64,000 bases of DNA, from the NCBI GenBank assembly GCA_030680835.1, contig JAUXUD010000104.1, positions 25,051 through 89,050 of the forward strand, written 5' to 3'. Below are positions 10,773-61,987 of this stretch, one piece after another. This DNA is from Bacteroidota bacterium (GTDB taxonomy: Bacteria; Bacteroidota; Bacteroidia; UKL13-3). Positions within the stretch are counted from its first letter, which is position 1. The number at the start of each line of letters is the position of its first letter. The notes under the pieces are model-generated. The model was given only the letters and a program-made list of their open reading frames with translations, made no database searches and had not been told where the DNA came from. The position numbers were made by a program, and so were the translations under genes.

Positions 10773-10858
10773 AAGCTTTTTTCTTTGCCATTTATTTGCG
10801 ACTTTAAAATTTAGATGTATTGGTTATTTTATGATACGTCCCAAGAGTTATGTTATAC

Positions 10859-16415: not shown

Positions 16416-16441
16416 TTCAAACTTTGCTTTTGGCCATAGTT

Positions 16442-16858: not shown

Positions 16859-16969
16859 ATTTATTGATGATCTAATAATATCCCATTTCTGGGTACAAAA
16901 AAAGTGGGCACATTACGTGTCCACTTTAAGGGGTACAGATCAGTTTAGTGAATAGCCTTTTATTTTTTA

Positions 16970-18527: not shown

Positions 18528-18723
18528 TTTTTTGTTATTTAATTGTGAAAGAATTTATTTGGTTCAATTACAGTGTAGCTAAATGAATGGAAGTTCATAA
18601 GATGAATAAAGGAGTGCAGAAGCACTACAAATTCTAACAATAAAAAAGCAACCCATTTTTGAAGGATTGCTCTTTTTTTAATAAAACCAATGATTTGTTT
18701 CCCTATCGTAATGTAATTGAAAA
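18528..18723. repeat. Intergenic cassette, copy 1 of 2 (about 75-80% identical to 19648-19802)
   Basis: Shares TTTAATTGTGAAAGAATTTATTTG, ATAAGATGAATAAAGGAGTGCA and a hairpin plus T-run terminator (18643-18680) with the second copy. Confidence 0.7.
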
Positions 18724-29350: not shown

Positions 29351-29399
29351 GAAGATATTATATCAGATCGAGCTAGGGATTTGTAGCTCTTTACTATCT

Positions 29400-31115
29400 T
29401 TATTTATTTCCAAAGAGCTTTTGTGGAGTAGGTATCTGGATAGTCAGCTTGAACGGTATATTGTTGCCAATTTCTCTAATATTTGAAGGTCTATTTGTGC
29501 TCATGCCATTCCTATCGCCAGAGAAGAATGAGACATTGTTTTCGGTTGTTATTGGTATATAACCACATATTTGTAATTCTTGTTGTGTTCCAACAATTTT
29601 TTCTATAACGTTCATCATTATGCCTCTTTTGACCTCAAAACTCAAGTCCATTAGCTTTTCCTTTACGTTTTTAACAAAGACTTCAATTTGATCCATGTCA
29701 GGTATTTTTATTTCTTCACTATTTCGTTCCTGTTCCCTTGCTCTTTCAATTTGAGATTCTAACATGGTTATTTTTTCTTTAATAGGTATTAGAAACTCTC
29801 TTAATTGCTCCAAAGTGAGCATCCCCGCACCGTATGCTCTGTTGAAACGAATCTCTTCCATTTTTGAGTTCATTAATTCATCTTCTATTTGCCTAATCTC
29901 ATCCGGCTGAAATGTATTTTTAGTACTTTTAATATTTTTCCATCTGGTTGCGTGTTCTAATATAATCTGCGGTGAAGTCATCAGCATCGAGATACTTTGC
30001 CAGACCATATTATCTATGATTCTGGCATTGATTCCACCTTGTAAGCACGTCTTAGGCAATGGGAAATTATTTATCCGATCATTGCATCTATAGTACAAGT
30101 ATTTACCATGTTTAGGGCCTTCACCTGACCTTCTCCTACCGCAAGAACAAAAAATTAATCCGATCAATAAATAGTCATATTTTTTATTTCGTATACTTTG
30201 CTTGAAATTTCTTTCAACCCTTTCACGAACGCGATAAAACAATTCTTTATCAATAATTGGAGGTACAGGAATTTTATACCATTCTTCCTCCGGCTTCATC
30301 CTTCTACTACTTTTTTTTACTTTCCTATATTTTGTTGTGCTTTTGGGATTTTCTGGAACAACAGCGTATGAGCTACCCCAATGAGCCTCTCCAATGTAAG
30401 CCTTATGTTTAAGAAGAGTTGTTAAGGTACTGGTACTCCAAACCCCTCTTTTGCTTTTTCTAGGTTTAATTCCGAGCTGATACAATCTTGTTACTATCTT
30501 CCTTTGCGTTAGCCCTTCTTCATCTATCCATTTAAAGATCATCTGGATCACCTTAGACTCTTCTTGATTAACCTTATAGTAACCATGAATTTTGTCCTCT
30601 TTTTTTATATATGTATACCCATACAATGGTTCGCTAACAAGAAGATTACCTTCGCGGACTTTACGAACTTTCCCTAATCTGAATCTTTCCTTTATTTTCA
30701 TTCTTTCATATTCAGTAAAGACACCCCGCATCTTATACATAATTATTTCTTCATCGGTTTTCGGTTGAGGTATCGTTACGAAAAGAACATCAATTTCCAA
30801 TTCTTTTAATTCCTCCATGACTACTTCTTGCCATGCCCCTCGTCTTGCCAATCGGTCCGGGTCATAAATGAGAACAGCCTCCCAATTCCTTTTCTTGGCA
30901 TCCATTCGGAGCTGATCCAAACCTGGCCTTATTAGATTATCACCACTCCACCCTTCATCTAAATATTCTTTTACTATCGTGTAGCCATGCAATTTTGCAA
31001 ATTCAGATACTGCCAAAAGCTGAGTCTCTATTGTACCCTCACTTTCTTGATTTGAGGTAGAAACTCTCCCATAAATTGCGATTAATTTAGTTTTCTTTAT
31101 CAATAAGTTTTCCAT
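29400..31115 (-). CDS. Large serine recombinase (resolvase domain + recombinase domain + zinc ribbon + coiled coil)
   Basis: LIAIYGRVSTSNQESEGTIETQ catalytic region, 571 aa, Cys cluster CSCGRR...YYRCNDR. Confidence 0.85.
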   Translation of the reverse strand: MENLLIKKTKLIAIYGRVSTSNQESEGTIETQLLAVSEFAKLHGYTIVKEYLDEGWSGDNLIRPGLDQLRMDAKKRNWEAVLIYDPDRLARRGAWQEVVMEELKELEIDVLFVTIPQPKTDEEIIMYKMRGVFTEYERMKIKERFRLGKVRKVREGNLLVSEPLYGYTYIKKEDKIHGYYKVNQEESKVIQMIFKWIDEEGLTQRKIVTRLYQLGIKPRKSKRGVWSTSTLTTLLKHKAYIGEAHWGSSYAVVPENPKSTTKYRKVKKSSRRMKPEEEWYKIPVPPIIDKELFYRVRERVERNFKQSIRNKKYDYLLIGLIFCSCGRRRSGEGPKHGKYLYYRCNDRINNFPLPKTCLQGGINARIIDNMVWQSISMLMTSPQIILEHATRWKNIKSTKNTFQPDEIRQIEDELMNSKMEEIRFNRAYGAGMLTLEQLREFLIPIKEKITMLESQIERAREQERNSEEIKIPDMDQIEVFVKNVKEKLMDLSFEVKRGIMMNVIEKIVGTQQELQICGYIPITTENNVSFFSGDRNGMSTNRPSNIREIGNNIPFKLTIQIPTPQKLFGNK

Positions 31116-31377: not shown

Positions 31378-32781
31378 ATGTGTTCAAACCCAAGCCCCAC
31401 AACTGCACACCTTTATTCCCCTTATATCCCCAGCTTTATTTTCATATTATTAAGGTATATGAATAATGAAATTAATTATCAAAACGAAATCACCCCCTTA
31501 GGAAAAGTAAATTTCAGAAGTGATAACCGGGAATTCGGAATTAAGGACAAAGACAGACTCTATCACATCTGGGCTATTGGAAAGACCGGAACCGGTAAAA
31601 GCACCCTATTACAAAACATGGCAATAAGTGATATTCAAAAAGGAAAAGGTTGTGCCATCATTGACCCACACGGAGAAATCGCAGATAACATACTCAAATA
31701 CATTCCACATGACCGCATCGAAGATGTGATCTACTTCAACCCGACTGACATGGAATTCCCAATTGCATTTAATCCATTAAAGAATGTCCATCCAGAATAT
31801 CACCACCTGGTGGCATCAGGATTACTCTCAACTTTTCAAAAGTTATGGTTGGATAATTGGGGTCCCCGTCTCTCTCACATCTTAAAGCACTCTCTTTTAA
31901 CTCTACTTGAATACCGGGAATCTTCCCTGTTAGATATTCAACCATTGCTAACTGATATTGAATATAGGCACAAGGTTCTATCAAGAATTAAAAGCCAATA
32001 TCTATTGGCCTTCTGGTACAATGAATTTGATAAATATTCTAATGCCTTTCGAGCAGAAGCAATTGCTCCAATCCTAAACAAGCTTGGATTATTTTCATCA
32101 AGTGTCCCGATCAGAAATATAGTCGGACAAAAGAAACGAGGTTTCCAATTTCAGAAAATCATGGAAGGCAAGATATTCATTGCCAATCTTAGTAAAGGAA
32201 TAATTGGAGAGGATGCCTCAATTCTTCTTGGTTGTATGCTATTAACTTCATTTCAACTTGCTGCTCTTTATCGAGCCTCTCAACCAGAACATACCCGTAA
32301 ACCATTCTATTTATATGTAGACGAAGCCCATTCGTATATGACCACATCATTTGTCGATATTCTTTCAGAAGCTCGTAAATACGGCCTATCACTCTTTTTA
32401 ACCCATCAATACGTTGAACAATTAAAGCCGGAAATTAGATCTGCTGTGATGGGTAATGCAGGTACAATCATTTCATTTCGTATAGGCCCAAATGATGCAC
32501 GATACCTAGCGGAAGAATTCTATCCAGTTTTCAATCACCATGATATGATAAACCTACCGAGATATTGCATGTACCTCAAATTAATGATTGATAATGAAGC
32601 ATCACAGCCATTTAGTGCGACTTCCTTACCATTGATGGTAAAAGAAAAATCATTCAGACGCGAAATTATCGAACATTCAAGAAAGCAATATGGTAAGCCC
32701 CGTAGAGAGGTTGAAAAAATAGTGTACACAGTAGAGCCCCAGCAAACACAACAAACACTTTTCCAGTCATCTATAATCTAA
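31378..32781 (+). CDS. TraD/VirD4-like P-loop ATPase (type IV coupling protein family)
   Basis: Walker A IGKTGTGKST, AIIDPHGE motif, Walker B LYVDEAHSYM. Confidence 0.55.
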   Translation: MCSNPSPTTAHLYSPYIPSFIFILLRYMNNEINYQNEITPLGKVNFRSDNREFGIKDKDRLYHIWAIGKTGTGKSTLLQNMAISDIQKGKGCAIIDPHGEIADNILKYIPHDRIEDVIYFNPTDMEFPIAFNPLKNVHPEYHHLVASGLLSTFQKLWLDNWGPRLSHILKHSLLTLLEYRESSLLDIQPLLTDIEYRHKVLSRIKSQYLLAFWYNEFDKYSNAFRAEAIAPILNKLGLFSSSVPIRNIVGQKKRGFQFQKIMEGKIFIANLSKGIIGEDASILLGCMLLTSFQLAALYRASQPEHTRKPFYLYVDEAHSYMTTSFVDILSEARKYGLSLFLTHQYVEQLKPEIRSAVMGNAGTIISFRIGPNDARYLAEEFYPVFNHHDMINLPRYCMYLKLMIDNEASQPFSATSLPLMVKEKSFRREIIEHSRKQYGKPRREVEKIVYTVEPQQTQQTLFQSSII

Positions 32782-33150
32782 TCGACAAAGTTATTCTGAC
32801 CGTTACCTGTACGAAGTAAGGGTACCGTTGGAAACACTAAAGAGGGTCATTAACAAAGAGACCTTTATATCGAGCACATTCCGATTTAAAGGCTTCTTTG
32901 TTGAGTAAATTACAAATAAAATTGCTTTGCCAAACCGTTTTTGAAAATGATCTTGATAAGTGATGTAAGAGCGAATGAATGTCATTAAGTATATGGTATG
33001 AAGCAATCCAATGAGATGGAGGCAAAACATGGAACAATATGGCTGAAAGCTGTGTTGTTCCATGCAGTGCCTCCGAGACTAATGTTGTGTATTATCTCGC
33101 AAGGTTTATTATAATTATTCGGCAGAATAATTTCAGTGCTTAACATTCCA

Positions 33151-33181: not shown

Positions 33182-33248
33182 CCTATGAAACAAACCCACA
33201 ATTCTACCCCTAGTTTGCGGGCCAACACAAATATATAAAAAATTACTT

Positions 33249-36851: not shown

Positions 36852-37252
36852 CGTTTCGGAGGAGAGATTTGAACCTTTATCTATTCGCCAGAAGTGGTAA
36901 AGGAACAAATCCCGGAGGAGACCAATTTATAAAGAGGCCATTGAAAACAATTGTGACTACCGGAAACATTTTGTTTTTTGTGGCTACTTTCATTTAACCC
37001 TCATAAAAGAGACTGGTTCCACGTTCAAAAATGAATGAGTATGCGAATGATTTTTGGGGCGTGGTACAGACGCAAACTCATCATTCCAGATTAAAGTTTG
37101 TAGTGTGAAAGCTATATGCTTTGCCGGTATAAACTTTAAAAGATTGGAATGGTGAACATTTCATTACCCAATAAATTGGCCTAAAAAAATGTTTCAAGAG
37201 TTGATTCTATATAAAGATAACCACTTATATTTGCCTGAATATTTATCTACCA

Positions 37253-39703: not shown

Positions 39704-39719
39704 CTTTGTCCAGGGGGTA

Positions 39720-39790
39720 CGGGGTAGGATGCCCCGCAAGATACAGTGTTCCGAACAAGATGATTTCTGTTCTTGGAGGAACACTGTATC
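39720..39790. terminator. Compound stem-loop: small GC hairpin plus a perfect 13-bp inverted repeat directly after the CoiA-like gene
   Basis: cggggtaggatgccccg then GATACAGTGTTCC-N25-GGAACACTGTATC. No T-run, so it may be a recombination or operator site rather than a terminator. Confidence 0.4.
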
Positions 39791-39840
39791 TTGCTACCCA
39801 ATCCCATATTCGAATTTTATCTTTCAAATTTCTTCAACAT

Positions 39841-40212
39841 AATTTGTTCCGCAGGAACAGCAAATAGCATCTTTTACATCCATTTTGTTCCGGGGTAACA
39901 GCATTTACTGTTTTCCAAAACAGCTTTTTAAAATAAAAAGCATCCAATAAAAAACAATTCCGATGGAATTCATTTTGGATAACTTTCTTACAAATCATTT
40001 CCCAATATACTGACTATATTATTATGCATTTTAGTCATGCTGTTCACTAGCTGAACAGGCTCATTATCAGCATGAGCCATAATGTCCAAAACTTCTTAAA
40101 CGGCACTTTAGTTGACGAATTCATTTCGAATCTGAATATAAATTATTTAACCAATATGAGACTCATCTCATGTTAAACCCAATAACTATGAATTTAATTA
40201 AACTCTATTTTA
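39841..40212 (+). repeat. About 375 bp direct repeat, copy 1 (paralogous to 45468-45838)
   Basis: About 85-90% identity by eye. Contains palindromes TTGTTCC-gca-GGAACAA, CTGTTCA-ctagc-TGAACAG and GGCTCAT-N7-ATGAGCC. Confidence 0.8.
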
Positions 40213-45425: not shown

Positions 45426-45467
45426 CGGTATTCCGATTCTAGCTTTAACCATTTATTAATTGGTCTT

Positions 45468-45838
45468 ATTTTGTTCCGCAGGAACAACAAACTACATTTA
45501 TTACATCCATTTTGTTCCGGAGTAATTGCATTAACTGTTTTACAAAACAGCTTTTTAAAATAAGCTACATCCAATAAAAAATAATTCCAACGGAATTCAT
45601 TTTAGATAACTCTTTTACAGATAATTTACCGATATACTGACAATATTATTATACACTTCTGTCATGCTGTTCACTAGCTGAACAGGCTCATAATCAGCAT
45701 TAGCCATAATGTCCAAAACTTTTTAAATGGCACTTTAGTTGAAGAATTTATTTCGATTCTGAATACAAATTTTTTAACCAATCATGAGCTTCATCTCGTG
45801 TTAAACCCAATAACTATGAATTTAATTAAACTATTTTT
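45468..45838 (+). repeat. About 375 bp direct repeat, copy 2, candidate oriT/operator region upstream of the mobilisation genes
   Basis: Same palindromes as copy 1 (TTGTTCCGCAGGAACAA at 45471-45487, CTGTTCACTAGCTGAACAG at 45667-45685). Ends about 115 bp before the coupling-protein gene. Confidence 0.8.
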
Positions 45839-45952
45839 TAAGTACCTATTTCTAATCGCATTTACTGCCTTTGAGATGTTAGGCGAAATTTTCTTGTTCA
45901 TTGTTAAGGCAATTAAAACAGGCCTTGAAAAAACTAATAAATAAACAGCGAT

Positions 45953-47428
45953 ATGAATAACCTCACATTATTTTTTCAGGGATTCGGTAGAATCACCTGG
46001 ATCTGCATTACATATTTTGCAAATGGAGTGTTCTGGATACTCACCTCTATTTTTGAAGCAATAGAAAACGGTTTAAATAGTTCAATACCTAAAAAAGAAG
46101 GTTTCGATGCAGATTTTTTATCTCAAGGCGAATTATTGAGTTCATTTAATAAAGGGTTTACCGTAACCGGTGCTAAATCTTTAACTGAAAAGGATAGCCA
46201 TCAACATGTTTTAGTAATTGGGGGTTCAGGATCAGGTAAAAGTACCGTTGTAATTATTCCTTCAATTTTTTCACTCGCAAAACACGGGCATAGTCAATGC
46301 ATCCATGATCCATCGGGTGAACTTTATAATGCTACAGCTGGCTATTTAAGAAGTCTGGAATATGATGTACTGGTATTGGATTATAATAGGCCTGAAATGT
46401 CAGATGGATATAATCCACTTGAAAGAATTAAAACCGGATCGGACATTTTCAAAACTGCAACAACCTTGGTGCAAAACAGTATGGGCAAATCTGGAACAGA
46501 TGCCTTTTGGAATTCACAAGCGGTAAGCTTCATTTCCCTAATGATTACCATTCTTAAAAAACAGAGTGCTAAATACCAAACATTAACTAATGTACGACAC
46601 CTGGTGAATTCCTTTTTAAGCGAACCGGAAATGATGGATAGATTGGTAGCCGGTTGCTGTGATCCGGCCATTCTTAAGGAATACAAATCATTTCTAACAA
46701 CCGAAAAGAAAGTGATGGCGAATGTCATCAGCACCTGCCGGAGTTCATTACAATTGTTCGCTGACGAATCAATTCAACTGGTTACTTCCGAGGACTCCAT
46801 CAATTTTAACAAATTCCGTGAGAAGAAAACCGCATTGTTCATAATGAACAAAACGGCTGATCTCTCATATTACGCACCCCTCAGTTCAACTTTTTTCCTT
46901 CAATTCTTCAATTTCATCATGTCCCAGCCGGTACCTGACAAAAAAACTCGCAGCATTTTCTTCCTTATCGATGAAATGTCCAGCCTATTCCTCCCAACGA
47001 CCATGCAAATCGCTTTATCAAATTTACGTAAGTACCGTTGCGGGATAATGGGAATTATCCAGGACTGTAACCAGTTGGAGCACCTCTACGGCAAAAATGA
47101 AGCCGGTGCCATCCTCTCTAACTGCTACTGCAAGGTTTACTTCCCCGGACAGCCAATTGATACAGCCCGTGAGCTTGAATCCATGCTCGGTAAACGTGAA
47201 TACGAAGATGATGATGGCAAAAAACGCACCAGAGCCCTTTTAACAGCGGATGAAATTAGGGTAATTGATAAGGAGCATGCTTTGATATTTTGTGGCCCAA
47301 ATAGAGCCATATACGCATATATGAAGCCCTTTTACAAAAACTATCGGTATAACGGCCATGCTAAGTTACCAATTGCAAATATGAACCGGAATATCCTTCA
47401 AACTAATGTCCACCTTATCGGCTCATAA
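45953..47428 (+). CDS. Type IV coupling protein (VirD4/TraG/MobC-like) ATPase
   Basis: Walker A VLVIGGSGSGKST, Walker B FFLIDEMSSLF. Size and position next to the relaxase. Confidence 0.7.
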   Translation: MNNLTLFFQGFGRITWICITYFANGVFWILTSIFEAIENGLNSSIPKKEGFDADFLSQGELLSSFNKGFTVTGAKSLTEKDSHQHVLVIGGSGSGKSTVVIIPSIFSLAKHGHSQCIHDPSGELYNATAGYLRSLEYDVLVLDYNRPEMSDGYNPLERIKTGSDIFKTATTLVQNSMGKSGTDAFWNSQAVSFISLMITILKKQSAKYQTLTNVRHLVNSFLSEPEMMDRLVAGCCDPAILKEYKSFLTTEKKVMANVISTCRSSLQLFADESIQLVTSEDSINFNKFREKKTALFIMNKTADLSYYAPLSSTFFLQFFNFIMSQPVPDKKTRSIFFLIDEMSSLFLPTTMQIALSNLRKYRCGIMGIIQDCNQLEHLYGKNEAGAILSNCYCKVYFPGQPIDTARELESMLGKREYEDDDGKKRTRALLTADEIRVIDKEHALIFCGPNRAIYAYMKPFYKNYRYNGHAKLPIANMNRNILQTNVHLIGS

Positions 47429-47433
47429 AAATT

Positions 47434-47862
47434 ATGGCAAAACCTAAGAGCAAGGCATTGTATGAGTATCTGTTATATGCCGGAGTACTAAACAGTACTC
47501 CGGATGAAATTGCTTTGGCTAAGGTTGCCTACCGGAAAGCATACCTATTAAATTGGAAAGAAAAGAAGGCTCCACTGATTAAAGAAATTAGAATTGTTTG
47601 TTCACTGAAAGAATACAAAGACGTTAAAGTTTTCTCAAATAACCTCGGTAAATCTCCAACAGCATTTACCAAATCCCTACTTCTTTCATTTATCACCCAA
47701 CATTCCATGTTACCGAATCAGCAACAACTGGAATCCATTTATCAAAAGATTGGATTGATTATCAATCAAAGTCTGAAAGATAAATCAAATCTTAACCTGA
47801 TCGAAAAACTGATAACGATTGAGGAGGAGTTGAAAGAATATCTTAAATCCAATTCAAAATGA
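47434..47862 (+). CDS. Small mobilisation accessory protein, hypothetical
   Basis: 142-aa ORF between coupling protein and relaxase. Its end overlaps the relaxase start by 4 nt. Confidence 0.4.
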   Translation: MAKPKSKALYEYLLYAGVLNSTPDEIALAKVAYRKAYLLNWKEKKAPLIKEIRIVCSLKEYKDVKVFSNNLGKSPTAFTKSLLLSFITQHSMLPNQQQLESIYQKIGLIINQSLKDKSNLNLIEKLITIEEELKEYLKSNSK

Positions 47863-48707
47863 TATACAAAGTAATGACACGCAGTACACCAACATATAAA
47901 GGACTTATTGAGTATATTCTAAATGAATCCAAAACTCCTGATAGTCATATTTTCACTCATAACCTGCGTTCAAAGAAGCGGGACGTAAAGAATATAACCA
48001 AAGAGTTCATTGAAAACGAATCATACCGAAAATATTCCCGCAGTGATCAGGTGTTTTTAAACCATGAGATTATAAGCTTTAGTAACATGGATTCTGTAAA
48101 GATTCAACCTGCCATGATCCAAGATATTATGAATCGGTATATTTCATTAAGAGGTGAAAATGGTGTTTACCTGGCCAGTGTCCACCAAGATACCAGCCAA
48201 ATACACGTACACATCATGGTATCTGGTTTACAGTACCGGTCAGGCCGTTCCTTTTATATCCCGAAAGACAAATTATTTAAACTTAAGAAAGATTTACAGG
48301 AATATCAAAAAGAGAAATACCCTGAAATTTCTTATAGCCTGCCGAATCATGGTTCCAAAAGAGAATATGTAACCGACCGGAAATGGTTTGCTAAACACAA
48401 AGAAGATAGAAGTATTGAAAAGGTAATTCTGCAGAAAACCATTAAAGAAGCGTTTGAAATATCCTCAACCCAAAAGGAATTTTTAAACCTGCTGGCTAAA
48501 CAAAACCTCCATTACTATGAAAGGAGTGGAAGTCCTGCCGGTATAATTTCCGGCAATTCCAAATTTCGCTTTTCAAGATTGGGTATATCAAAAGAACTAT
48601 TCAACGACCTACCGTTTGATTTTACCGAAGAAAGCCAGGCTTTAAAAGAAATTGAATTGATCAGGAAATCAAGAAATGTCAATACAAATATTGAAATGGA
48701 ACGATAA
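47859..48707 (+). CDS. Relaxase/mobilisation nuclease (MobB-like)
   Basis: Relaxase motif III HxDxxxxHxH in LASVHQDTSQIHVHIMVSG. N-terminal Tyr-containing region. Confidence 0.75.
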   Translation: MIYKVMTRSTPTYKGLIEYILNESKTPDSHIFTHNLRSKKRDVKNITKEFIENESYRKYSRSDQVFLNHEIISFSNMDSVKIQPAMIQDIMNRYISLRGENGVYLASVHQDTSQIHVHIMVSGLQYRSGRSFYIPKDKLFKLKKDLQEYQKEKYPEISYSLPNHGSKREYVTDRKWFAKHKEDRSIEKVILQKTIKEAFEISSTQKEFLNLLAKQNLHYYERSGSPAGIISGNSKFRFSRLGISKELFNDLPFDFTEESQALKEIELIRKSRNVNTNIEMER

Positions 48708-49299
48708 CAAAAAAATAATTAATCCAAATACAACAATGAATAACAACACAAATGTTGAAACCACCCAGGCTGTGGCTGACAACAAATCAAAAACAACTCC
48801 GATCATTGAACCGGATGTAAAATCAACTCCCTCACCTGATGCACCAGTCGTTAAGAAAAGACCGATTGAGATTGCCAGGGATTTACTTAAAGCACAATCA
48901 GTAGTAGTAAGAAGCCAGGTTGAATCTGGCCAGTTTGAAACTATTAATGATGCAATTATTGAAACCAAATATAAGGATGGAAAAAATCAGGAATTCAAAA
49001 GTTACCGGCAATGGAAAAAAGAAGGGTATCAAGTCAGAAAGGGCGAAAAAGCCTTCCTGTTATGGGGTAAACCTAAAGAAAATACTAATTCCAAAATTGA
49101 ATCGGAACAAAAAAATACCGGCAAGGATAGTCCAGACGAGCATGATCCATTCTTCCCGATTGCATTTGTCTTCTCCAACGCCCAGGTTAACCCTAAGGAA
49201 ATCCAGTTGGAACCAGAAGTAAATGCAACAGTTAATGAGCTTGTCAATATCCGGCACAAGAAACAGGATAGAGATTTACAAAACGAAATGACAAGATAA
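48676..49299 (+). CDS. Protein with ArdC-N-like ssDNA-binding motif
   Basis: SYRQWKKEGYQVRKGEKAFLLWGKP parallels the ...G..VKKGEK... motif of the two ArdC-like genes. Confidence 0.4.
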   Translation: MSIQILKWNDNKKIINPNTTMNNNTNVETTQAVADNKSKTTPIIEPDVKSTPSPDAPVVKKRPIEIARDLLKAQSVVVRSQVESGQFETINDAIIETKYKDGKNQEFKSYRQWKKEGYQVRKGEKAFLLWGKPKENTNSKIESEQKNTGKDSPDEHDPFFPIAFVFSNAQVNPKEIQLEPEVNATVNELVNIRHKKQDRDLQNEMTR

Positions 49300-55208: not shown

Positions 55209-55469
55209 ATGCAGATAGACTTTATAACCCGTGCTGATCTACTTGAGTTCCGCAACCAACTCCTGACAGAACTGAAAGCTATTATTATCAGTAATGAAAA
55301 GCCTGAGCCCGGACAGTATCTTAAGAGTGGGCAGGTTCGGAAAATACTTAACATTTCTGCTGGCACCCTGCAAAACCTTCGAATTACCGGCAAACTACAC
55401 CCAACCAAAATAGCCGGTACACTGTATTATTCTTTGGATGAGATTCAATCCCTTTTAAGCGGAAAATAA
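55209..55469 (+). CDS. Excisionase-like HTH_17 (MerR-superfamily) DNA-binding protein
   Basis: LKSGQVRKILNISAGTLQNLRITGKLHPTKIAGTLYYSLDEIQSLL. Confidence 0.6.
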   Translation: MQIDFITRADLLEFRNQLLTELKAIIISNEKPEPGQYLKSGQVRKILNISAGTLQNLRITGKLHPTKIAGTLYYSLDEIQSLLSGK

Positions 55470-55472
55470 CAC

Positions 55473-55772
55473 ATGAACCTGTCTAGCGCAATAGTGTTGT
55501 TTTATCAGTTAGCTGAGAAGGACGCCAATATCAGTCCTTCTCATATAGCTATCTATAACGCCCTGTTGTTTGTTTGGTCAGAACAGAAAATTATGCCATT
55601 GTCGATCACCAGGTCGAGACTGATGCGCCTAGCTAAAATCCGTGGCACGGCTACTTTTTCGAAAGTTATTCGTGATCTTAATAAGATGGGCTATTTGAGT
55701 TATATACCCTCATTTGATCCTGCCGGTAAAACTCAAATATTTTTACAGCTCGGAACCGAACCAATAATTTAA
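55473..55772 (+). CDS. Hypothetical small protein, possible DNA-binding partner of the excisionase-like gene
   Basis: 99-aa ORF 4 nt downstream. Confidence 0.4.
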   Translation: MNLSSAIVLFYQLAEKDANISPSHIAIYNALLFVWSEQKIMPLSITRSRLMRLAKIRGTATFSKVIRDLNKMGYLSYIPSFDPAGKTQIFLQLGTEPII

Positions 55773-55776
55773 TTTT

Positions 55777-55918
55777 ATATATTTGCACAACGAATTAAAG
55801 TAAGCAAAACGAGCCGGTGAGTATTTCGGTGAGTTTTGATTTTTGCTTCATTTAAAGTATTGGGAATAAGATCAGGCCGGCTGTTATTCGAATCTCTCCA
55901 GCTCCAAACTTAATAACC
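55777..55918 (+). repeat. Repeat A (about 140 bp) with tRNA-3'-end-like tail, left flank of the ROCO-TIR gene
   Basis: ATATATTTGC...AATTAAAGTAAGCAAAAC...GGTGAGTATTTCGGTGAGTTTTGATTT...AAAGTATTG...TTATTCGAATCTCTCCAGCTCCA. Paralogous to 60143-60275 and 60354-60447. Confidence 0.7.
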
Positions 55919-55972
55919 TAATATCTGATTAACCCCGAATGTTGAAATGGGTATTTAAATTCCAAATATAGT

Positions 55973-58900
55973 TTATATTGATTCAAACAATTTTTTTTCT
56001 CGGAACTCTTTAATAATATTAGTCCAAAACAAAGCCTTTTCCTCATCATTTAACCCACTAATTTTACCATTATTACGTAAGTCATTGTCAATAGATAAAA
56101 TTTTTCCCCTTTGTGCAGCCTGATATTTTCCTAACTTAGAACTTTCCCAATCACAAGCTTTAATAATAATTGGAATGATAATTTTGTTCTGTTCAATTGC
56201 ATATTCAATTTCTATCTGTTTGATGTAATCTGTGTTAAGAAATTTAACGCTAACTAAACAAATCAAAATATCAGACGAAGTAATTTGCCTTTTAATTTCT
56301 TCATCCCACTCTAGGCCAAATTCAATTTTTCTACAATTAAATGTTATTAGTCCTTCATCCTTCAAAGTTACTAAATGATCCTCAAAGTCCTGCAAATAGT
56401 TCTCATCGAATTTAGAGTATGAAATAAATAGCTTTTTTATTTTTTTTATTTTACTCTGCGTAAAAGAAGAAAAGTCGTATGCTAATATCTCGTTATAATT
56501 CATATTATCAATCCTGCCATTTAAAATTTTATATGCCTTTATTTTATAATTATCATTAATATTAAATAGTTCAGAATATCTTACATAATTCATATCGTCT
56601 ATTGAAATATATGCATCCAATGGTATGTAATCTTTTTCGGTTTGTAATGATTTCCATCCACTATATTGTCCAGAATTAGAATACTCAGTCGATTCTTCAA
56701 AAGACAAAGATTTAAATGCAATAAAATCTTCAAATTGAGGAATTCTAAAATGCTTTAAATCCCAGTAAAGTGCTAAAATACTATAAAACAAATATTCACA
56801 AATTAGCGCATCGGTTGATCTGGAGGAATCCAATCTTTCAAAGATTACATTTATTTTCAATTGCTCAAAATCCAAACTTATTAGAACTTTTGCTTCTTGG
56901 TGAAGCGTAAACAAAAGCTGATTTCGCCAGAACTTCTTAACATCTGGTTGAATGCCATAAAAACAAATCACCTGATTAATAAAACCAAATGGGATAAAAT
57001 CATTGAATTTTATAACAAAATTAGGTTTGTTTAAACCAAATACTGATAAGGTATAATCTGGATCATTATTTAATGCGAGAGGCAAAAAATTAGGAACAAT
57101 ATATTCCTCATTTAATCCATCCCTTGCGGGCTGATTTAAAAAAATTATTTTCTGCTCCCTTAAGAGAGTTAATAATATTTTATCATTAATTAGATCTTCA
57201 AACCTTTCTTTGGGGATAATTCCTTTTCCTAAAGTAATCAAATCTTTAATCAAAATATTTTCATGAATATACCTTACTAAATCAGATGGGCTTAACCAAA
57301 CCACATTTTCTAAGCCTTGAATATGTGGGTAATATAAAACCATACCATGACGATGTAAAATTGTTAAATTCGTAACTAAAGATTGGAGTTTTTTATTAGC
57401 ATCCACTTCAGTCAAATTGTAGTTTGGAAGTATTTCATTTAAGTATACATATTTATTTGTTCCATCATTCTGATTAAAAATGTAATCCAAAAAATCTATG
57501 TACCATTGTGGTTCTAGATTACTTCTATCATTATTAAAATTTGTAATTAATCTTTTTAAAAATGCAATAAAATGTCTTCTCCCAGATTCAAAATACTCAT
57601 CCTCCACAATGTCTGTGAATTTTTTAAACGATAAGTTAAAAGCACCTTTAAATCCAGGATATTTCTCATAATCTAAAATATCACTCGAATTTCCAGCCAT
57701 GTCAGCATATCCTTGAATTATTATATATGGATCAGCACCTAGGGATCTTTCCATATATATTTTTTGACCGAGCCAGTAATAGCGATTAAAATTCATTATT
57801 GGCAAAAAATCAGAGTCTACTGTAATTTCATTTTTATCCTTATCCTTATCAAATAGAATAATTTGTAAAGAATCATTGCTTAAGAATGCTCTATATAGAC
57901 CATGATAAAAATCCTGTCCACCAAAGTCAAAAAAAATTGCATTGGGAAGATTCAAACTTGTATTATCTTCGGAAATATAAAATTTCCTTATTCGTAAAAC
58001 GTGTGTACTTCCCTCTGTATATTGATTAATTATATAATCAAGTAATGATGATTTTCCACAAGCATGGTTACCTAATAAAATTATTTTTACTGGTAATCGG
58101 CATTCTAAATTATCTGCACCTAAATTTCTGCCAATTAATTCCTTTAGATAAGGTAAGTGGTTTTCATCCTTTTCTAAAATTAAATTGAATTTATTTAGAA
58201 ATGGATTATTCGCAATCTTTACTTCAGTACAAGTATTTTGATCAATGATATAGTTTAATTCACTTAAGTTTTCAATTGAATTATAATTTAAATTTATTTT
58301 TTTTAATGATTTTAAATTTCGCAATCCTCCAATAGTACAAATTTGATTATTTGAAAAGTTAATTTCTAATAAGTCACTGAGTTGTGGGAAATTATTTATT
58401 TCTGATAAGTTGTTTTTTTGTAAGCTTAGAGATGTAAGTGAATTTAATTTCTCTAAACCATTAGCTTGTGATATTTCATTATCATTTAAATTTAGCAACC
58501 TTAATCGACTTTGATTATTTAAACCCCGAATAACTTGAATATTATTTTCTCCTAATTTTAATTCCAGCAAGTTTATCAGCGACTCTAACTCTTTTATTTC
58601 ACTAATTTTATTCTTTTCCAAATTCAAAAATTCTAATTTATCCAAATAATTTAGCCCCTTTATTTCGATTATTTGATTTCGATCAAGTTTAAGATCACGC
58701 AATAAAATACAATTTTGTAACCCTTTAATTTCACTAATTTGATTATTGCTTAAATCAAGATAGCACACCTTGCGCAAATTTTCTAAGCCATTTATTTCAG
58801 TAATATTATTATCATTTAAAGATAGTGTCTTTAAATTTTCAAAGGCACTAATATCAATAATTCCATTTAATCTTCTATTACTTAAATCTAAGTTTATTAT

Positions 58901-59938
58901 TTGCCCTTCTTCATCCGTCTCATATTTAAATTCATGAATATTTATTTTTAATTTTTCTTCTAGTTCAAGTATTTGCTTTGGTTTAGAATTTGTTCGATTT
59001 TTTTTAAAAGATTCAATAAGAATATGGGCAGCCACTTCTTCCATTGGATTTTTCCTGTCTAATAATGGGTTTGTCTCCGTAATGTCTATACCAATGAATT
59101 TAGTATTTGTAATAAGATTACCCAATAAATATATTGATTCATTTATAGTAAGGCCCTCTGGCACTGGAGTGCCTGTACCATATGAAATGGTAGGGTCCAT
59201 CGTATCCACATCAAAAGAAACAAATATTAAATCAACATACTTAAGATGTTCTAAAGTCTTTTGAAGAATACTTTCAATACCAAAAGACTTTATGTCTTTT
59301 GGAGTAAAGTATTTAATATTCAATTCATGTAGTAATTTAGTCTCTTCCGAATCCAAGTCTCTAACATCAATTAATACAACATCTTCAGGTAACACCTTCG
59401 GTTTGATTTTCTTCTCACCTAACTCTAATAAATTTAACCATTTCCCCAAAGTATTGTCATCCACAGAATTGATCTTATTATTAGCGTTGTTTTGTCCTAA
59501 AGCTATTGATAGCGCCATTCCGTGCATATTTCCAGATGGAGTAGTAAATGGAGTATGCAAATCAGAATGAGCATCAATCCATACAACTCCCAGTTTCTTA
59601 TTTTCATATCTGTCTTTAATTGCACTTATTACCGCTGCACTAGAACTATGATCGCCTGATAAGACTACTAAATATTTATCATCTTTAAGTAGGTTTGAAA
59701 TCGAATCATATGATCTTTGGAAAACTTGTTCAATTGATTCAATATTATTGCAATAAGAATCGAAATTATTTTCACTTTCCAAATCATTTGTAATAATTTT
59801 GGTTAGCTCTGATGATTTTAAAATATCAGAACCAGACTTACTTATAACTTTATAAATTGCATGAGGGCCAAGTTTAGCCCCTCTTGTTCCAGCCCCGAAA
59901 TCTGAGTCAATTAGTATAATATTTATTTCAGGGTTCAT
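55973..59938 (-). CDS. 1321-aa multidomain protein: arginase/ureohydrolase-fold domain, leucine-rich repeats, Roc-type GTPase, COR-like region, C-terminal TIR domain
   Basis: Arginase motifs LSGDHSSS, IDAHSDLH, SFDVDTMDP (aa 1 to about 330). About 11 LRRs LxxLxLxxNxIxxI (aa about 335-600). G1 LLGNHACGKSS and G3 DFGGQ. C-terminal about 155 aa begin with the TIR motif KKLFISYSKFD and contain ...ILICLVSVKFLNTDYIKQIEIEYAIE. Confidence 0.8.
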   Translation of the reverse strand: MNPEINIILIDSDFGAGTRGAKLGPHAIYKVISKSGSDILKSSELTKIITNDLESENNFDSYCNNIESIEQVFQRSYDSISNLLKDDKYLVVLSGDHSSSAAVISAIKDRYENKKLGVVWIDAHSDLHTPFTTPSGNMHGMALSIALGQNNANNKINSVDDNTLGKWLNLLELGEKKIKPKVLPEDVVLIDVRDLDSEETKLLHELNIKYFTPKDIKSFGIESILQKTLEHLKYVDLIFVSFDVDTMDPTISYGTGTPVPEGLTINESIYLLGNLITNTKFIGIDITETNPLLDRKNPMEEVAAHILIESFKKNRTNSKPKQILELEEKLKINIHEFKYETDEEGQIINLDLSNRRLNGIIDISAFENLKTLSLNDNNITEINGLENLRKVCYLDLSNNQISEIKGLQNCILLRDLKLDRNQIIEIKGLNYLDKLEFLNLEKNKISEIKELESLINLLELKLGENNIQVIRGLNNQSRLRLLNLNDNEISQANGLEKLNSLTSLSLQKNNLSEINNFPQLSDLLEINFSNNQICTIGGLRNLKSLKKINLNYNSIENLSELNYIIDQNTCTEVKIANNPFLNKFNLILEKDENHLPYLKELIGRNLGADNLECRLPVKIILLGNHACGKSSLLDYIINQYTEGSTHVLRIRKFYISEDNTSLNLPNAIFFDFGGQDFYHGLYRAFLSNDSLQIILFDKDKDKNEITVDSDFLPIMNFNRYYWLGQKIYMERSLGADPYIIIQGYADMAGNSSDILDYEKYPGFKGAFNLSFKKFTDIVEDEYFESGRRHFIAFLKRLITNFNNDRSNLEPQWYIDFLDYIFNQNDGTNKYVYLNEILPNYNLTEVDANKKLQSLVTNLTILHRHGMVLYYPHIQGLENVVWLSPSDLVRYIHENILIKDLITLGKGIIPKERFEDLINDKILLTLLREQKIIFLNQPARDGLNEEYIVPNFLPLALNNDPDYTLSVFGLNKPNFVIKFNDFIPFGFINQVICFYGIQPDVKKFWRNQLLFTLHQEAKVLISLDFEQLKINVIFERLDSSRSTDALICEYLFYSILALYWDLKHFRIPQFEDFIAFKSLSFEESTEYSNSGQYSGWKSLQTEKDYIPLDAYISIDDMNYVRYSELFNINDNYKIKAYKILNGRIDNMNYNEILAYDFSSFTQSKIKKIKKLFISYSKFDENYLQDFEDHLVTLKDEGLITFNCRKIEFGLEWDEEIKRQITSSDILICLVSVKFLNTDYIKQIEIEYAIEQNKIIIPIIIKACDWESSKLGKYQAAQRGKILSIDNDLRNNGKISGLNDEEKALFWTNIIKEFREKKLFESI

Positions 59939-60142
59939 TTGAGAATAGGCTAATTTTTAAGCTCAAGGCTAATTCAGCTGATGTAAATTTTCATATTTGA
60001 CGAATTTAATTAAATGGATCAAAATTTCAATGTTTTCCTACTTATAATTTGAATATCAGCCCAAAAGGGTTATAGAACTATATTTTAACTGATGGTAAAT
60101 TATTTTATTTTTAATGTAGTTTAAAATTAAAACCTTAAATTA

Positions 60143-60275
60143 TATATTTGCTTTCAGAATTAAAGTAAGCAAAACAAACTGGTGAGTTTTTAGGTGAGTT
60201 TTGATTTCTGGTTCTCATAAAGTATTGATATTACCTTAGGTACATGTTGGGTTCGGTACTCTCCACCTCCACTGA
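60143..60275 (+). repeat. Repeat B, right flank of the ROCO-TIR gene
   Basis: TATATATTTGC...AATTAAAGTAAGCAAAAC...GGTGAGTTTTTAGGTGAGTTTTGATTT...AAAGTATTG...GGTTCGGTACTCTCCACCTCCA. Confidence 0.7.
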
Positions 60276-60353
60276 GTCAATACTAAATTGAATCAAAGTT
60301 AAAACTGGCCTTACGAGCAGTTTTGTTCAACCTAAATTCTCATCAAAAAAATG

Positions 60354-60447
60354 TGGTGAGTATTTAGGTGAGTTTTGATTTCAGGTTTATATAAAGTATT
60401 GATAATAAGTCGCTCCGGAGGGCAGTTCGAATCCCTGCACCTCCACA
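60354..60447 (+). repeat. Repeat C (5'-truncated copy) with the best tRNA-3'-end-like motif
   Basis: GGTGAGTATTTAGGTGAGTTTTGATTT...AAAGTATTG...GGAGGGCAGTTCGAATCCCTGCACCTCCACA (T-loop-like GTTCGAATC). Confidence 0.7.
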
Positions 60448-60466
60448 AGCAGAAAAAAGAGAAAGG

Positions 60467-60501
60467 GAAAGAGAAAGAGTAAAAAATCCTCTTTCTCTTT
60501 C
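60467..60501 (-). terminator. Terminator of the delta-60-repeat gene
   Basis: Perfect 13 bp inverted repeat GAAAGAGAAAGAG-N9-CTCTTTCTCTTTC followed on the minus strand by a T-rich tract. Confidence 0.55.
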
Positions 60502-60559
60502 AATTTCTGTTTCTAAAAAATCATTCGTTTAAAGCGTATGTCAACCAGTTAAAATTTAT

Positions 60560-61987
60560 TTATTGAACAATAATTTTCTGATTATACACTTTTGCTTCAT
60601 AATAAACTTTTACAAAATAGATTCCTTTTGCCAGGGCAGAAAGGTCTATTTGCATTTGCCGATTATTGTTTGATGCCGTATATACTTTTTCGCCGGACAC
60701 ATTGTAAATTTCTAATTCTCCATTTGATGATTGCATATTGTCAAAGGTCAATTGAAAAATTCCATTTGATGGATTTGGATAAGCACTAAAATTGTGTTTA
60801 TCAAGATTGCTTTCATTTATACCAACTCCGGCACCTCCATTTATGCGGGCAATGTAGTTTCTTGCCGTTCCATTATATGAAGTGAACCAGCCACCGATAA
60901 TAATTTTTCCATCGCTTTGTATAGCGGTTGTATAGACCGAAGTGTTTGCTCCGGTTCCCGGATTAAAAGTTGCATCAAGGCTGCTATTTGCATTTAGTCG
61001 GGCAATACGGTTTCTTGCTGTTCCGTTATAGGAAGTGAACCCACCACCGACAATAATTTTCCCATCACTTTGTAAAACGGTTGTATATACAGTACCGTCT
61101 GTTCCGGTTCCCGGATTAAAAGTAGCGTCAAGACTGCCATCGGCATTAAGGCGGGCAATTCGGTTTCTTGCCGTTCCGTTATAGGAAATGAAAATGCCAC
61201 CGATAATAATTTTCCCATCGCCTTGTATAGCGGTTGTTTTTACAGAAGTGTTTGCTCCGGTTCCCGGGTTAAAAGTTGCGTCAAGGCTACCATCAGCATT
61301 CAGACGCATAATGTAGTTTCTTGCAGTTCCGTTATAAGTAGTGAAGGCACCACCGATAATAATTTTCCCATCACTTTGTATAGCGGTGGTATAAACAGTA
61401 CCGTCTACTCCGGTTCCCGGATTAAAAGTTGCATCAAGGCTGCCATTAGCATTCAGGCGTGCAATTCCCTTTCTTGCAGTTCCATTATAGGCATAAAAAC
61501 TGCCACCGATAATAATTTTCCCATCGCTTTGTATAGCGGTAGTTACGACCTTGTCGCCTGCTCCGGTTCCGGTACCCTGATTAAAAGTTGCGTCAAGGGT
61601 GCCATTAGCATTCAGGCGGGCAATACGGTATTTTGTCGTTCCATTATAGGTATTGAAATCGCCACCGATAACAATTTTTCCATCACTTTGTATAGCAGTT
61701 GTATATATAGAAAGGTTTGCTCCGGTTCCCGGGTTAAAAGTTGTGTCAAGGGAGCCATTAGCATTAATACGAGCAATACGGTTTCTTGTCGTTCCATTAT
61801 AGGAATTGAAACCACCACCGATTATAATTTTCCCATCGCTTTGTATAGCTGTTGTTTCGACCAAATCGTTTGCTCCGTCTCCCGGATTAAAAGTTGCGTC
61901 AAGGCTGCCGCTGCCGGGTTGGGCTTTGACATAAAAACTAAAAGCTGTAAATAACAGCATTGATAAAAATAAGGTGATGTTTTTCAT
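60560..61987 (-). CDS. Delta-60-repeat protein with T9SS C-terminal sorting domain
   Basis: Eight tandem approximately 47-aa repeats (SLDATFNPGTG...TTAIQSDGKIIIGG.F.SYNGTARNRIARLNA.G) and C-terminal FSAYPNPSNGIFQLTFDN...GIYFVKVYYEAKVYNQKIIVQ. Nucleotide-level tandem repeats of about 141 bp. Confidence 0.7.
   Translation of the reverse strand: MKNITLFLSMLLFTAFSFYVKAQPGSGSLDATFNPGDGANDLVETTAIQSDGKIIIGGGFNSYNGTTRNRIARINANGSLDTTFNPGTGANLSIYTTAIQSDGKIVIGGDFNTYNGTTKYRIARLNANGTLDATFNQGTGTGAGDKVVTTAIQSDGKIIIGGSFYAYNGTARKGIARLNANGSLDATFNPGTGVDGTVYTTAIQSDGKIIIGGAFTTYNGTARNYIMRLNADGSLDATFNPGTGANTSVKTTAIQGDGKIIIGGIFISYNGTARNRIARLNADGSLDATFNPGTGTDGTVYTTVLQSDGKIIVGGGFTSYNGTARNRIARLNANSSLDATFNPGTGANTSVYTTAIQSDGKIIIGGWFTSYNGTARNYIARINGGAGVGINESNLDKHNFSAYPNPSNGIFQLTFDNMQSSNGELEIYNVSGEKVYTASNNNRQMQIDLSALAKGIYFVKVYYEAKVYNQKIIVQ

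Follow-up and report, generated by a model that had tools for sequence, protein, structure and literature searches.

In the Islander work of Williams and co-workers the T-loop region was the commonest sublocation within the tDNA, and ssrA was the most favoured target (PMC4383910). The end of such an island is marked by a displaced 3' fragment of the tDNA in direct orientation, several of these fragments may follow one another in a row, and the Islander definition requires a regenerated tDNA together with an on-board tyrosine integrase (PMC4383910). The ssrA islands of Dehalococcoides are arranged in tandem and bounded by 20-bp repeats of the ssrA 3' end, and about half of them have no integration module (PMC3146451). 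These mobilizable islands lie downstream of ssrA, which heads the array; they are associated with cis-mobilizable elements and accretion, and the gene of their large serine recombinase, located on the reverse strand, overlaps with its 3' end the ssrA repeat at attL (PMC3146451). For ICEs and IMEs a precedent exists in the CIME/accretion model, where att-type copies beside a mobilizable element surround cargo that carries no genes for integration or transfer (review PMC5704250). The Bacteroidota IMEs NBU1 and NBU2 possess a relaxase and an oriT, insert at the 3' end of tRNA-Leu or tRNA-Ser and depend on a helper ICE for transfer; a tyrosine integrase is among their products, a coupling protein is not (see PMC5704250).

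Att-type repeats that enclose a captured defence gene are an already known kind of island architecture. The window, i.e. the whole stretch of 64,000 nucleotides of a Bacteroidota contig that was analysed here, contains three copies of a repeat (A, B and C). With a probability of about 0.6 these copies are arms of an island right end joined to 3' fragments of ssrA, C being a live attR and A and B being fossils that enclose a captured gene.

Three direct copies of one repeat

The three copies described in the initial annotation were recovered by nhmmer at essentially the same positions, all in direct orientation (A, 55775-55920; B, 60140-60285; C, 60314-60457; E values 2e-36 to 7e-36), and the window contained no further copy. 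The core GGTGAGTNTTTNGGTGAGTTTTGATTT occurred exactly 3 times in the window compared to 0.00 times expected from 100 shuffles, and the tRNA-like tail was likewise found 3 times with 0 expected. A high-copy, genome-wide interspersed element is refuted by these three copies and by the absence of any true match to the repeat in genome, metagenome, viral and plasmid collections.

Copy A, a right-end module on the plus strand (55775-55907, from sequence and nhmmer), exhibits a Bacteroidota-type -7 box within TTATATATTTGC (55775-55786), two GGTGAGT sites (55816-55822 and 55828-55834), AAAGTATTG and the tail TTCGAATCTCTCCAGCTCCA (55887-55906). Sequence comparison placed copy B at 60140-60272 of the plus strand, with a -7 box within TTATATATTTGC at 60140-60151, two GGTGAGT sites (60181 and 60193) and the tail GGGTTCGGTACTCTCCACCTCCAC (60249-60272), which is of the tmRNA type but degenerate. 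Copy C (plus strand, about 60335-60446), the proposed live attR junction, is without the promoter-like TTATATATTTGC. Its GGTGAGT sites are found at 60355 and 60367, and it contains the imperfect inverted repeat GGAGGGCAG-TTCGAATCC-CTGCACCTCC and a canonical tmRNA-type 3' end from G60425 onward. The initial list of sequences common to all three copies had to be corrected for AATTAAAGTAAGCAAAAC, which is present in A and B only; in C the unrelated AAATTCTCATCAAAAAAA is located there.

The spacer between B and C contains a hairpin read from the sequence, AAAACTG-N10-CAGTTTT, which is followed by a T run (60301-60324, plus strand). Directly 3' of C an AG/CT-rich 24-bp hairpin terminator was observed (60456-60512; inverted repeat 88% complementary). 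This terminator probably belongs to the displaced ssrA end, or else acts in both directions and is shared with the convergent T9SS gene. The related element L132 has a similar hairpin after its right end. The reverse-strand echo of the motif reported earlier is indeed present (about 36853-36885, minus strand), and its GTTCAAATCTCTCC matches the T-loop and T-stem of tmRNA at 13 of 14 positions. As an ungapped 24-mer the echo shows 8 mismatches, equal to two unrelated sites of the window, and is therefore not demonstrably above chance.

The unit had been described as a tRNA-3'-like core. This holds for its tail, whereas some 100 nt out of about 130 per unit form an arm of conserved element DNA that showed no similarity to tmRNA. 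Each arm carries two GGTGAGT sites, 12 bp and thus one helical turn apart, which constitute the sole invariant block across all 8 copies compared. A -7 box, TAnnTTTG, precedes A, B, L136_B and L134 at a constant distance; the C copies and L218_B have none. In A and B this promoter box faces outward.

The related metagenomic elements differ in their number of modules: L134 possesses one copy, L136 cargo followed by B-C, and L218 a B followed by a truncated C. The body of B was 95% identical to L136_B and 84% identical to L218_B. The body of A is B-like (80-84% identity), yet the window's own B is not its closest relative. The B and C types are older than the split of the elements, and A did not arise recently from the B of the window. 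Between the window and L136 the B-C region was 90% identical over 348 bp, the neighbouring genes 74%. The stem of the B-C spacer hairpin is kept in L136, where both differences are located in the loop, and the hairpin is deleted in L218. The proposal that the tandem arose by later insertions at this site was not borne out: two other elements also contain B-C, and its types diverged before the elements did. This comparison indicates that the B-C tandem was inherited and not made in situ by successive insertions.

tmRNA-type tails and the limit of homology

Each copy ends with a fragment of the 3' end of a tmRNA (ssrA) gene, which is degenerate in B. The tail of A agreed in 20 of 20 positions with the 3' end of the tmRNA genes (tag GENNYALAA) of L142 and L150, and in 20 of 20 also with tRNA-Ala(tgc) genes. 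For the tail of C, 22 of 25 positions matched tmRNA, and in L141 this end follows a well-formed T stem. Ends of the CACCTCCA type, to which the tails of B and C belong, were tmRNA in 67 of the 72 annotated IMG/VR matches. In the relative L134 the tail is a tRNA-Ser end, and in L218_C it is absent. The tRNA-3'-like tail of the initial annotation can be specified as a tDNA 3' end, here of the tmRNA type. The identity to tDNA always begins in the T-loop. A-type tails contain the T-stem strand CTCTC and the acceptor CAGCTCC, C-type tails CCCTG and CACCTCC. The two types cannot both have completed one ssrA 5' half; one or both originated in a different host.

ARAGORN detected 0 tRNA and 0 tmRNA genes in the whole window, and no family was matched in an Rfam gathering search. 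Neither a complete cloverleaf nor a tRNA-like domain with a tag reading frame was found in the repeats by these programs, in agreement with the earlier remark that no copy folds into a complete tRNA. The copies could also be small-RNA genes (A and B, with C downstream in the transcript of B) encoding a regulator or a partner of the defence gene. Each gene would then have its own promoter, a transcript of about 120-290 nt and a tmRNA-like 3' minihelix. The TAnnTTTG box at its fixed upstream distance in four copies, the hairpin with a T run after B and after C, and the GGTGAGT pair unchanged in 8 copies fit this idea, as does the stable stem-loop of the C tail (-14.3 kcal/mol, z = -2.8). However, A (z = -0.07) and B (z = +2.4) folded no better than their shuffles, and the RNAalifold consensus was essentially nil (-0.55 kcal/mol, 5 pairs, 1 of them with a double change), so that no conserved secondary structure with covariation was seen across the copies. 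Moreover, Rfam matched no family, position 3:70 of the acceptor in the C hairpin is A-U and not G-U, the C copies and L218_B have no promoter box, and the type of tDNA in the tail varies by element, with a degenerate tail in B and none in L218_C. Small-RNA genes are hence a very unlikely explanation.

The homology between the window and L136 stops exactly at ...CCTCCAC, the tail of the outermost copy C. In three samples the Logan contigs L130, L136 and L135, assembled with k=31, end exactly 30 nt (k-1) after the start of tDNA identity, taken as the base from which the match to canonical tDNA runs uninterrupted. Their flanks differ despite this equal offset. The last base of L130 is 60454, 30 nt past G60425, and this contig shows no assembly branch at the tails of A or B. 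Contigs that end at exactly 30 nt would point, indirectly, to a second path or junction that shares the core plus flank, although no such path was itself seen. This second path into the core of C would read (other upstream)+GTTCGAATCCCTGCACCTCCACAAGCAGAA. The suggestion that all three repeats are candidate att sites can thus be upheld for C, which lies at the limit of homology and at a k=31 branch, whereas A and B gave no sign of being live.

The units might instead be operator or iteron arrays for the HTH_17 or the 99-aa protein (see below), and have a part in regulating or replicating the excised element, the tails being irrelevant relics. The GGTGAGT pair 12 bp apart is the only invariant block of the 8 copies, 6 of the 8 GGTGAGT occurrences of the window fall within modules, and the units adjoin the HTH_17 and 99-aa genes. 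Such arrays leave unexplained the homology boundary at the tail, the assembly branches and the fact that the tail of another element matches another tDNA, and no fold can be assigned to the 99-aa protein because its predicted model is too poor (pLDDT 53). Binding sites of this kind are compatible with att-arm sites and compete with them only over the role of the tails; as a replacement for the att reading they appear very unlikely.

The enclosed gene and the mobilizable backbone

The gene between A and B (55973-59938, minus strand) encodes a protein of 1321 aa. The initial annotation correctly placed a ROCO-TIR gene within the repeats; its domain set is fuller, comprising Arginase (2.5e-54), LRR_8, Roc, COR-A and TIR_2 according to Pfam. 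PADLOC identified a ThsB-like TIR (1.7e-20). The gene has a GC content of 28% compared to 33-38% in the flanking backbone, and it is alone in the interval between A and B (55908-60139), which contains no integration or transfer genes.

Directly left of this segment lies a mobilization backbone that reaches left to at least 32795. The products of its mobilization genes (45953-49299, plus strand) are a coupling protein of the VirD4 type, a protein of 142 aa, a relaxase of the MobA/VirD2 type and an ArdC-N protein. Synteny of this region was observed with L132, at 88% identity of the DNA, and with L134/L215, L217, L218 and L220. Upstream of the mobilization genes a GC hairpin with a 17-bp inverted repeat, GCAAGATACAGTGTTCC...GGAACACTGTATCTTGC (39713-39800, plus strand), is kept in L132, L215 and L220 and is probably the oriT. 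The last backbone genes 5' of the module are, in every family member, those of an excisionase-type HTH protein (55209-55469, plus strand; Pfam HTH_17, 5.7e-8) and of the 99-aa protein (55473-55772, plus strand), as seen from the homologues P0001-P0003 and from their contexts in L132, L134, L136, L218 and L220. Coupling protein, relaxase, ArdC, HTH_17 and 99-aa protein mark an island family shared with four other metagenomic elements. L132, the closest relative by backbone, has a right end without the module.

A second pair of direct repeats, about 373 bp long and 84-87% identical, is located at 39840-40212 (S1) and 45467-45840 (S2). It flanks other cargo, a low-GC block of 5.2 kb at the opposite backbone end, and is not an att sequence. 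Because of this pair, homologous recombination has to be regarded as a serious alternative for the A-gene-B segment: the arms would be real, but a Campbell-type or unequal exchange between two related elements would have produced the arrangement, with the tails of A and B as passengers. Both repeat pairs are alike in divergence (83-87%), S1, S2 and the single copy in L132 are about equidistant, as expected of copies from different elements, and in L136 the promoter box alone is duplicated around cargo. On the other hand, the tail of A is a perfect 20-nt tmRNA end unlike that of B, which fits an att junction made elsewhere. Homologous recombination also does not explain why every copy ends at a tDNA fragment, and no donor arrangement was observed. 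We therefore consider this origin possible but rather unlikely.

The only site-specific recombinase near the element is a large serine recombinase of 571 aa (29400-31115, minus strand; Pfam Resolvase, Recombinase and Zn_ribbon_recom), a candidate integrase. No tyrosine integrase of the PF00589 type was detected among the 60 window ORFs scanned, none by PHROGs among 10 of these ORFs without an informative Pfam match, and none was seen in L132, L215, L217, L218 and L220. No inverted copy of the arm half-site was found. The search for the target and attL covered the window and a further 9.46 kb to the left (L219), out of a contig of 185 kb. ARAGORN reported 0 genes on L219, blastn yielded no 5' part of a tmRNA, and the C core did not recur in the 60 kb leftward within the window or in these 9.46 kb. 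Because this region lacked both tRNA/tmRNA genes and another C core, the expected attL with a regenerated target was not found within about 70 kb upstream, nor was an intact target gene.

Comparison with described islands and proposed origin

As in Islander islands (PMC4383910), a direct 3' tmRNA fragment lies at the boundary (20/20 in A, 22/25 in C, where the L136 homology ends), identity starts in the T-loop and the presumed target is ssrA. In contrast to these islands, ARAGORN and blastn revealed no intact tDNA at the other end in the window plus 9.46 kb, no tyrosine integrase was encoded on board (60 window ORFs and five relatives), neither feature being found within about 70 kb, the unit consists mostly of a non-tDNA arm of about 100 nt, and the three fragments represent two incompatible tmRNA types. 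The mobilizable backbone, the repeated ssrA 3' ends and the large serine recombinase on the reverse strand resemble the Dehalococcoides islands (PMC3146451). However, no tail-like repeat adjoins the 3' end of this recombinase gene or its surroundings (29280-29520), no ssrA was seen, and phylum, backbone and cargo are all unlike those of Dehalococcoides. With NBU1 and NBU2 the present family shares the phylum, a relaxase and a probable oriT; unlike them, it possesses a VirD4-type coupling protein, ArdC, HTH_17 and the 99-aa protein and no detectable tyrosine integrase. The att-bounded segment without integration or transfer genes beside a mobilizable element corresponds to a CIME, whereas the parallel non-att duplication (39840/45467) suggests that homologous recombination also shapes the element.

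According to the att reading preferred here, the arms would belong to the right end of a family of integrative mobilizable islands of the Bacteroidota, each arm being joined to a tDNA 3' fragment, here of ssrA, at the T-loop position. A site-specific recombinase presumably cuts in the T-loop; the acting enzyme may be supplied in trans or may be the serine recombinase at 29.4 kb. The GGTGAGT pairs are predicted protein-binding sites for the HTH_17 protein, the 99-aa protein or an integrase. C would be of the attR type, with element DNA left of G60425 and the displaced ssrA 3' end and its terminator to the right. B may be an old internal copy carried along with the element, and A an arm contributed by another, related element. 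The cargo gene would occupy the position that follows the final backbone gene and precedes the arm. Its enclosure would date from the merger of two related elements, through accretion at the tDNA core with later deletion or through recombination between the elements. A composite element of this kind can move as one unit (PMC5704250), which would explain why the B-C tandem travels with different elements of the family.

Repeat copies and their tails

The initial annotation had described a ROCO-TIR gene bracketed by three direct repeats, none of them a complete tRNA. Both observations were borne out. A ~130-nt unit occurs in three direct copies on the forward strand, at 55775-55907 (A), 60140-60272 (B) and about 60335-60446 (C), and ARAGORN detected neither tRNA nor tmRNA genes in the window. 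Each copy, here called a module, combines an arm of about 100 nt with a tail resembling a tDNA 3' end. The invariant block GGTGAGTNTTTNGGTGAGTTTTGATTT and the tRNA-like tail each occurred three times in the 64 kb, with zero occurrences expected. A and B start with TTATATATTTGC, which contains TAnnTTTG, the Bacteroidota -7 promoter box; in C this box is missing, as are about 35 nt at the start of the unit. The sole block invariant across all copies is a pair of GGTGAGT motifs 12 bp apart. Six of the eight occurrences of GGTGAGT in the window lie within modules, and the pairs are putative protein-binding sites.

The final 20 nt of A, TTCGAATCTCTCCAGCTCCA, are identical to the 3' ends of tmRNA genes (tag GENNYALAA) from two IMG/VR contigs, and also to phage tRNA-Ala(tgc) genes. 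C agrees with the same tmRNA end at 22 of 25 positions, trailing CAA included, and its end is found exactly, behind a proper T stem (CCAGGGTTCGAATCCCTGCACCTCCA), in the comparison contig L141. Ends of the form GGTTCRAATCC-NNN-CACCTCCA lay within tmRNA genes in 67 of 72 annotated cases; therefore B and C are also of the tmRNA type. The module of the related element L134/L215 ends in TCCCGCCCTCTCCG, the 3' end of tRNA-Ser. In every copy the tDNA identity starts in the T-loop, and the ~100 nt upstream of the tail showed no similarity to tmRNA. The T-stem strands are CTCTC in the A-type and CCCTG in the C-type tail. Judged from these strands, the two types cannot both pair with one ssrA 5' half; at least one junction must therefore have formed in another host and then been carried along, as the accretion/CIME model permits (PMC5704250).

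Several other readings of the copies were considered. Those as a tRNA or tmRNA gene and as a two-piece tmRNA were rejected, as was a short ORF (B has a stop codon in the sole frame open in A). The same applies to a high-copy, genome-wide interspersed repeat. Exact-pattern scans of genome, metagenome and viral contigs with the core GGTGAGT-N-GGTGAGTTTTGA returned chance matches only, none of which extended, and a blastn search of B-C against plasmids gave no match. With Rfam the region yielded nothing at gathering thresholds and nothing at E<10, and searches of the window, the region, the right end of the related element L132 and the conserved non-coding region at 32795-33120 gave nothing meaningful.

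It is very improbable that A and B use their own Bacteroidota promoters to produce RNAs of ~130 nt ending in a tmRNA-like acceptor/T-arm mimic, so that the tails would be more than recombination scars. RNAalifold of eight copies gave -0.55 kcal/mol with five pairs, and A and B folded no better than shuffled sequence. A significantly stable hairpin was obtained for the window's C tail only, and its sequence can equally be read as an imperfect inverted repeat around the T-loop, which is the form that recombinase core sites usually take. If the RNAs did exist, they would form a mobile-element-encoded family that uses the tmRNA 3' end functionally, possibly in the control of excision or transfer or together with the adjacent Roc-TIR protein.

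A reverse-strand echo of the T-loop motif, reported near 36860, is indeed present at 36853-36885 (-), just after an XRE-type HTH gene in a non-coding gap of 370 bp. As a whole it was indistinguishable from chance. Near the echo, TCTCCTCCG occurs twice on the reverse strand, ~55 nt apart.

Position of the module in related elements

Left of A lies a mobilization backbone with genes for a VirD4-type coupling protein, a 142-aa protein, a MobA/VirD2 relaxase and an ArdC-N protein, followed by variable genes and then by an HTH_17 protein and a 99-aa protein. The model of the 99-aa protein (pLDDT 53) was too poor for a fold search, and a PDB sequence search with this protein gave no match. Five related elements, one in an NCBI genome assembly and four metagenomic, were found via homologues of the 99-aa protein and the relaxase; neither the 99-aa protein nor the coupling protein gave useful matches as an anchor for IMG/VR scans. 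L134/L215 carries one module after the 99-aa gene. The order in L136 is a 97-aa gene, the promoter box, a 436-aa cargo gene and a B-C tandem, and in L218 a B-type copy directly follows a 100-aa gene and precedes a C-type copy that is truncated. The closest backbone relative, L132 (88% DNA identity), has no module. At the corresponding place (L132 10303-10520) it has the same promoter box, 125 unrelated nt holding a 9-bp inverted repeat (CCTGATAAA/TTTATCAGG), and an AG/CT-rich hairpin ~80% similar to the hairpin after copy C. From its placement in these elements the module is therefore a right-end feature of the element family, and variable cargo occupies the slot that separates it from the 99-aa gene.

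To the right, the window and L218 have only a T9SS tail domain in common. The gene downstream of C (60797-61909, -) contains 153-bp tandem repeats, an ordinary feature, which correspond to DUF5122 beta-propeller blades of a T9SS-secreted protein. In L134, three tandem units of ~180 bp, each with a long terminal hairpin, directly follow the tRNA-Ser-type tail (10440-10930).

The window and L136 are 90% identical over the 348 bp of B, spacer and C (74% in the adjacent genes), and this similarity stops exactly at ...CCTCCAC. In three Logan contigs, uninterrupted identity to canonical tDNA starts exactly 30 nt before the contig end. These are L130 from the window's own sample (SRR13727518; identical to 55751-60454; terminal 30-mer GTTCGAATCC...AAGCAGAA), L136 (SRR24858484; GTTCGAATCC...TTGATGAT) and L135 (ERR3856789; TCCCGCC...ATCAAAC). 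The loop of real tRNA-Ser genes is TTCGAAT, and therefore the identity in L135 does start at that T. Logan assemblies are built at k=31 with an overlap of k-1 between neighbouring contigs (PMC12424806). Terminal 30-mers at the tDNA-identity boundary in three samples with differing flanks are the product expected of two merging paths, which is strong but indirect evidence. Each sample would then contain a second sequence that has the core and one or more additional flank bases in common with the first and differs upstream; around the C tail, GTTCGAATCCCTGCACCTCCACAAGCAGAA would be shared and the part upstream of it would be different. Such a sequence would be either an unoccupied site or, provided the direct repeat spans 31 bp or more, an attL copy.

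The assembly of the window's own sample also breaks at 55559 (contig L131) and resumes at 55751 (L130). The 30-mer 55751-55780 ends inside the promoter box, between TTATAT and ATTTGC. This suggests a second variant which shares the end of the 99-aa gene and has something other than copy A next to it.

Extent of the element and the search for attL

A GC hairpin with a perfect 17-bp inverted repeat (GCAAGATACAGTGTTCC/GGAACACTGTATCTTGC) at 39713-39800 is common to L132 (923-1010), L215 (544-620) and L220 (1672-1772); it precedes the genes of the coupling protein and the relaxase and is probably an oriT rather than an element end. Further left, the non-coding region 32795-33120, downstream of a coupling-protein-like gene, is homologous to L215:140-520 (~330 nt, ~69% identity between elements) and matched nothing in Rfam; it could encode an uncharacterized RNA or regulate the element. 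L220, a second related element from the same sample, has an exact 30-mer in common with 33185-33214. These two similarities therefore place the left limit of the element at about 32.8 kb or further left. Both the coupling-protein-like gene at 31378-32781 and a large serine recombinase of 571 aa (29400-31115, -) may belong to it. This second coupling-protein-like gene, divergent from the first, is transcribed divergently from the recombinase gene, which has a zeta-toxin gene directly downstream (28640-31115, -, for both). If the serine recombinase is the integrase, it would be the second serine recombinase targeting ssrA, after that of Dehalococcoides. Searches of the backbone ORFs against Pfam, NCBIfam and PHROGs revealed no tyrosine integrase anywhere; proteins of 363 and 264 aa were membrane-protein-like and lipoprotein-like.

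No tDNA, second core copy or inverted C-arm half-site was found in the window or in the 9.46 kb further left. The search for attL covered the tmRNA 5' part (blastn, not found), tail copies at up to 8 mismatches, the two ends of the serine recombinase gene and the IS3 junctions at 15.5-16.9 kb, and none of the latter three showed a target gene. The GC profile did not delimit the island. The earlier interpretation of the repeats as nested att sites stands in part: the repeats are confirmed, and attL, a target gene and a tyrosine integrase were not found. The absence of a tDNA, a second core and a tyrosine integrase is the main gap in the att reading, i.e. C as the attR-type right junction of a mobilizable island and A and B as internal fossil copies (probability about 0.6). 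The gap might be explained by an array of more than 70 kb; ssrA-island arrays of Dehalococcoides extend up to 100 kb (PMC3146451). It might also result from a rearrangement or a chimeric MAG-contig join at sequences common to the sample's two related elements, or from a recombinase supplied in trans.

History of the copies, cargo and related islands

B of the window and B of L136 are 95% identical, as are the two C copies, and the B-type copy of L218 is 84-89% identical to both B copies. The B-C duplication must therefore have preceded the divergence of the elements, and it travels with them. Copy A resembles the B type (80-84%), but the copy closest to it is not B of the window, and its tail is different; thus A is an arm of a different lineage. 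A second pair of direct repeats (39840-40212 and 45467-45840; ~373 bp, 84-87% identical) lies at the other end of the backbone, and its sequence is not an att site. It flanks a low-GC cargo block of 5.2 kb which encodes a 1136-aa protein (no match in Pfam, PHROGs or PADLOC) and three small ORFs; L132 has only one copy of the ~373-bp segment. This duplication parallels the arrangement of A, gene and B, which makes recombination between related elements a real alternative as the origin of that arrangement.

The gene between A and B (55973-59938, -) encodes a 1321-aa Arginase-LRR-Roc-COR-TIR protein with a ThsB-like TIR domain, probably a defence or NAD-depleting sensor with an unusual N-terminal enzyme. 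The only exact match recorded for it is with a single Logan contig, which is identical to the window. A complete Gabija system is located at 21981-27384 (+; GajA 6e-286, GajB 5e-257), followed by a 416-aa protein with a weak match to the PADLOC candidate PDC-M11A. An IS3-family insertion sequence (15524-16939; terminal inverted repeats TGTACCC(T/C)(A/T)TAAAGT(A/G)GACACGT) is followed by RadC and two ArdC-metallopeptidase genes at 16970-19647.

Islands which target tDNAs and carry tandem tDNA fragments are known (PMC4383910), and the architecture of the window matches them. The closest match is to the ssrA-specific mobilizable islands of Dehalococcoides, each of which is bounded by a 20-bp repeat of the ssrA 3' end and half of which have no integration module (PMC3146451). 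Two tested features of the Islander definition, a regenerated tDNA and a tyrosine integrase, were not found here. Therefore, we classify the element as one that works like these islands and not as a proven member.

Tandem tDNA fragments around cargo are in themselves a well-known architecture. For an undescribed family of mobilizable islands of Bacteroidota which carry defence genes, the finding sets the right boundary and the slot for cargo, and the region shows how cargo gets enclosed between attachment-site copies. The conserved arm together with the tDNA tail can serve as a marker to locate such islands, and the sites where they insert, in metagenomes.
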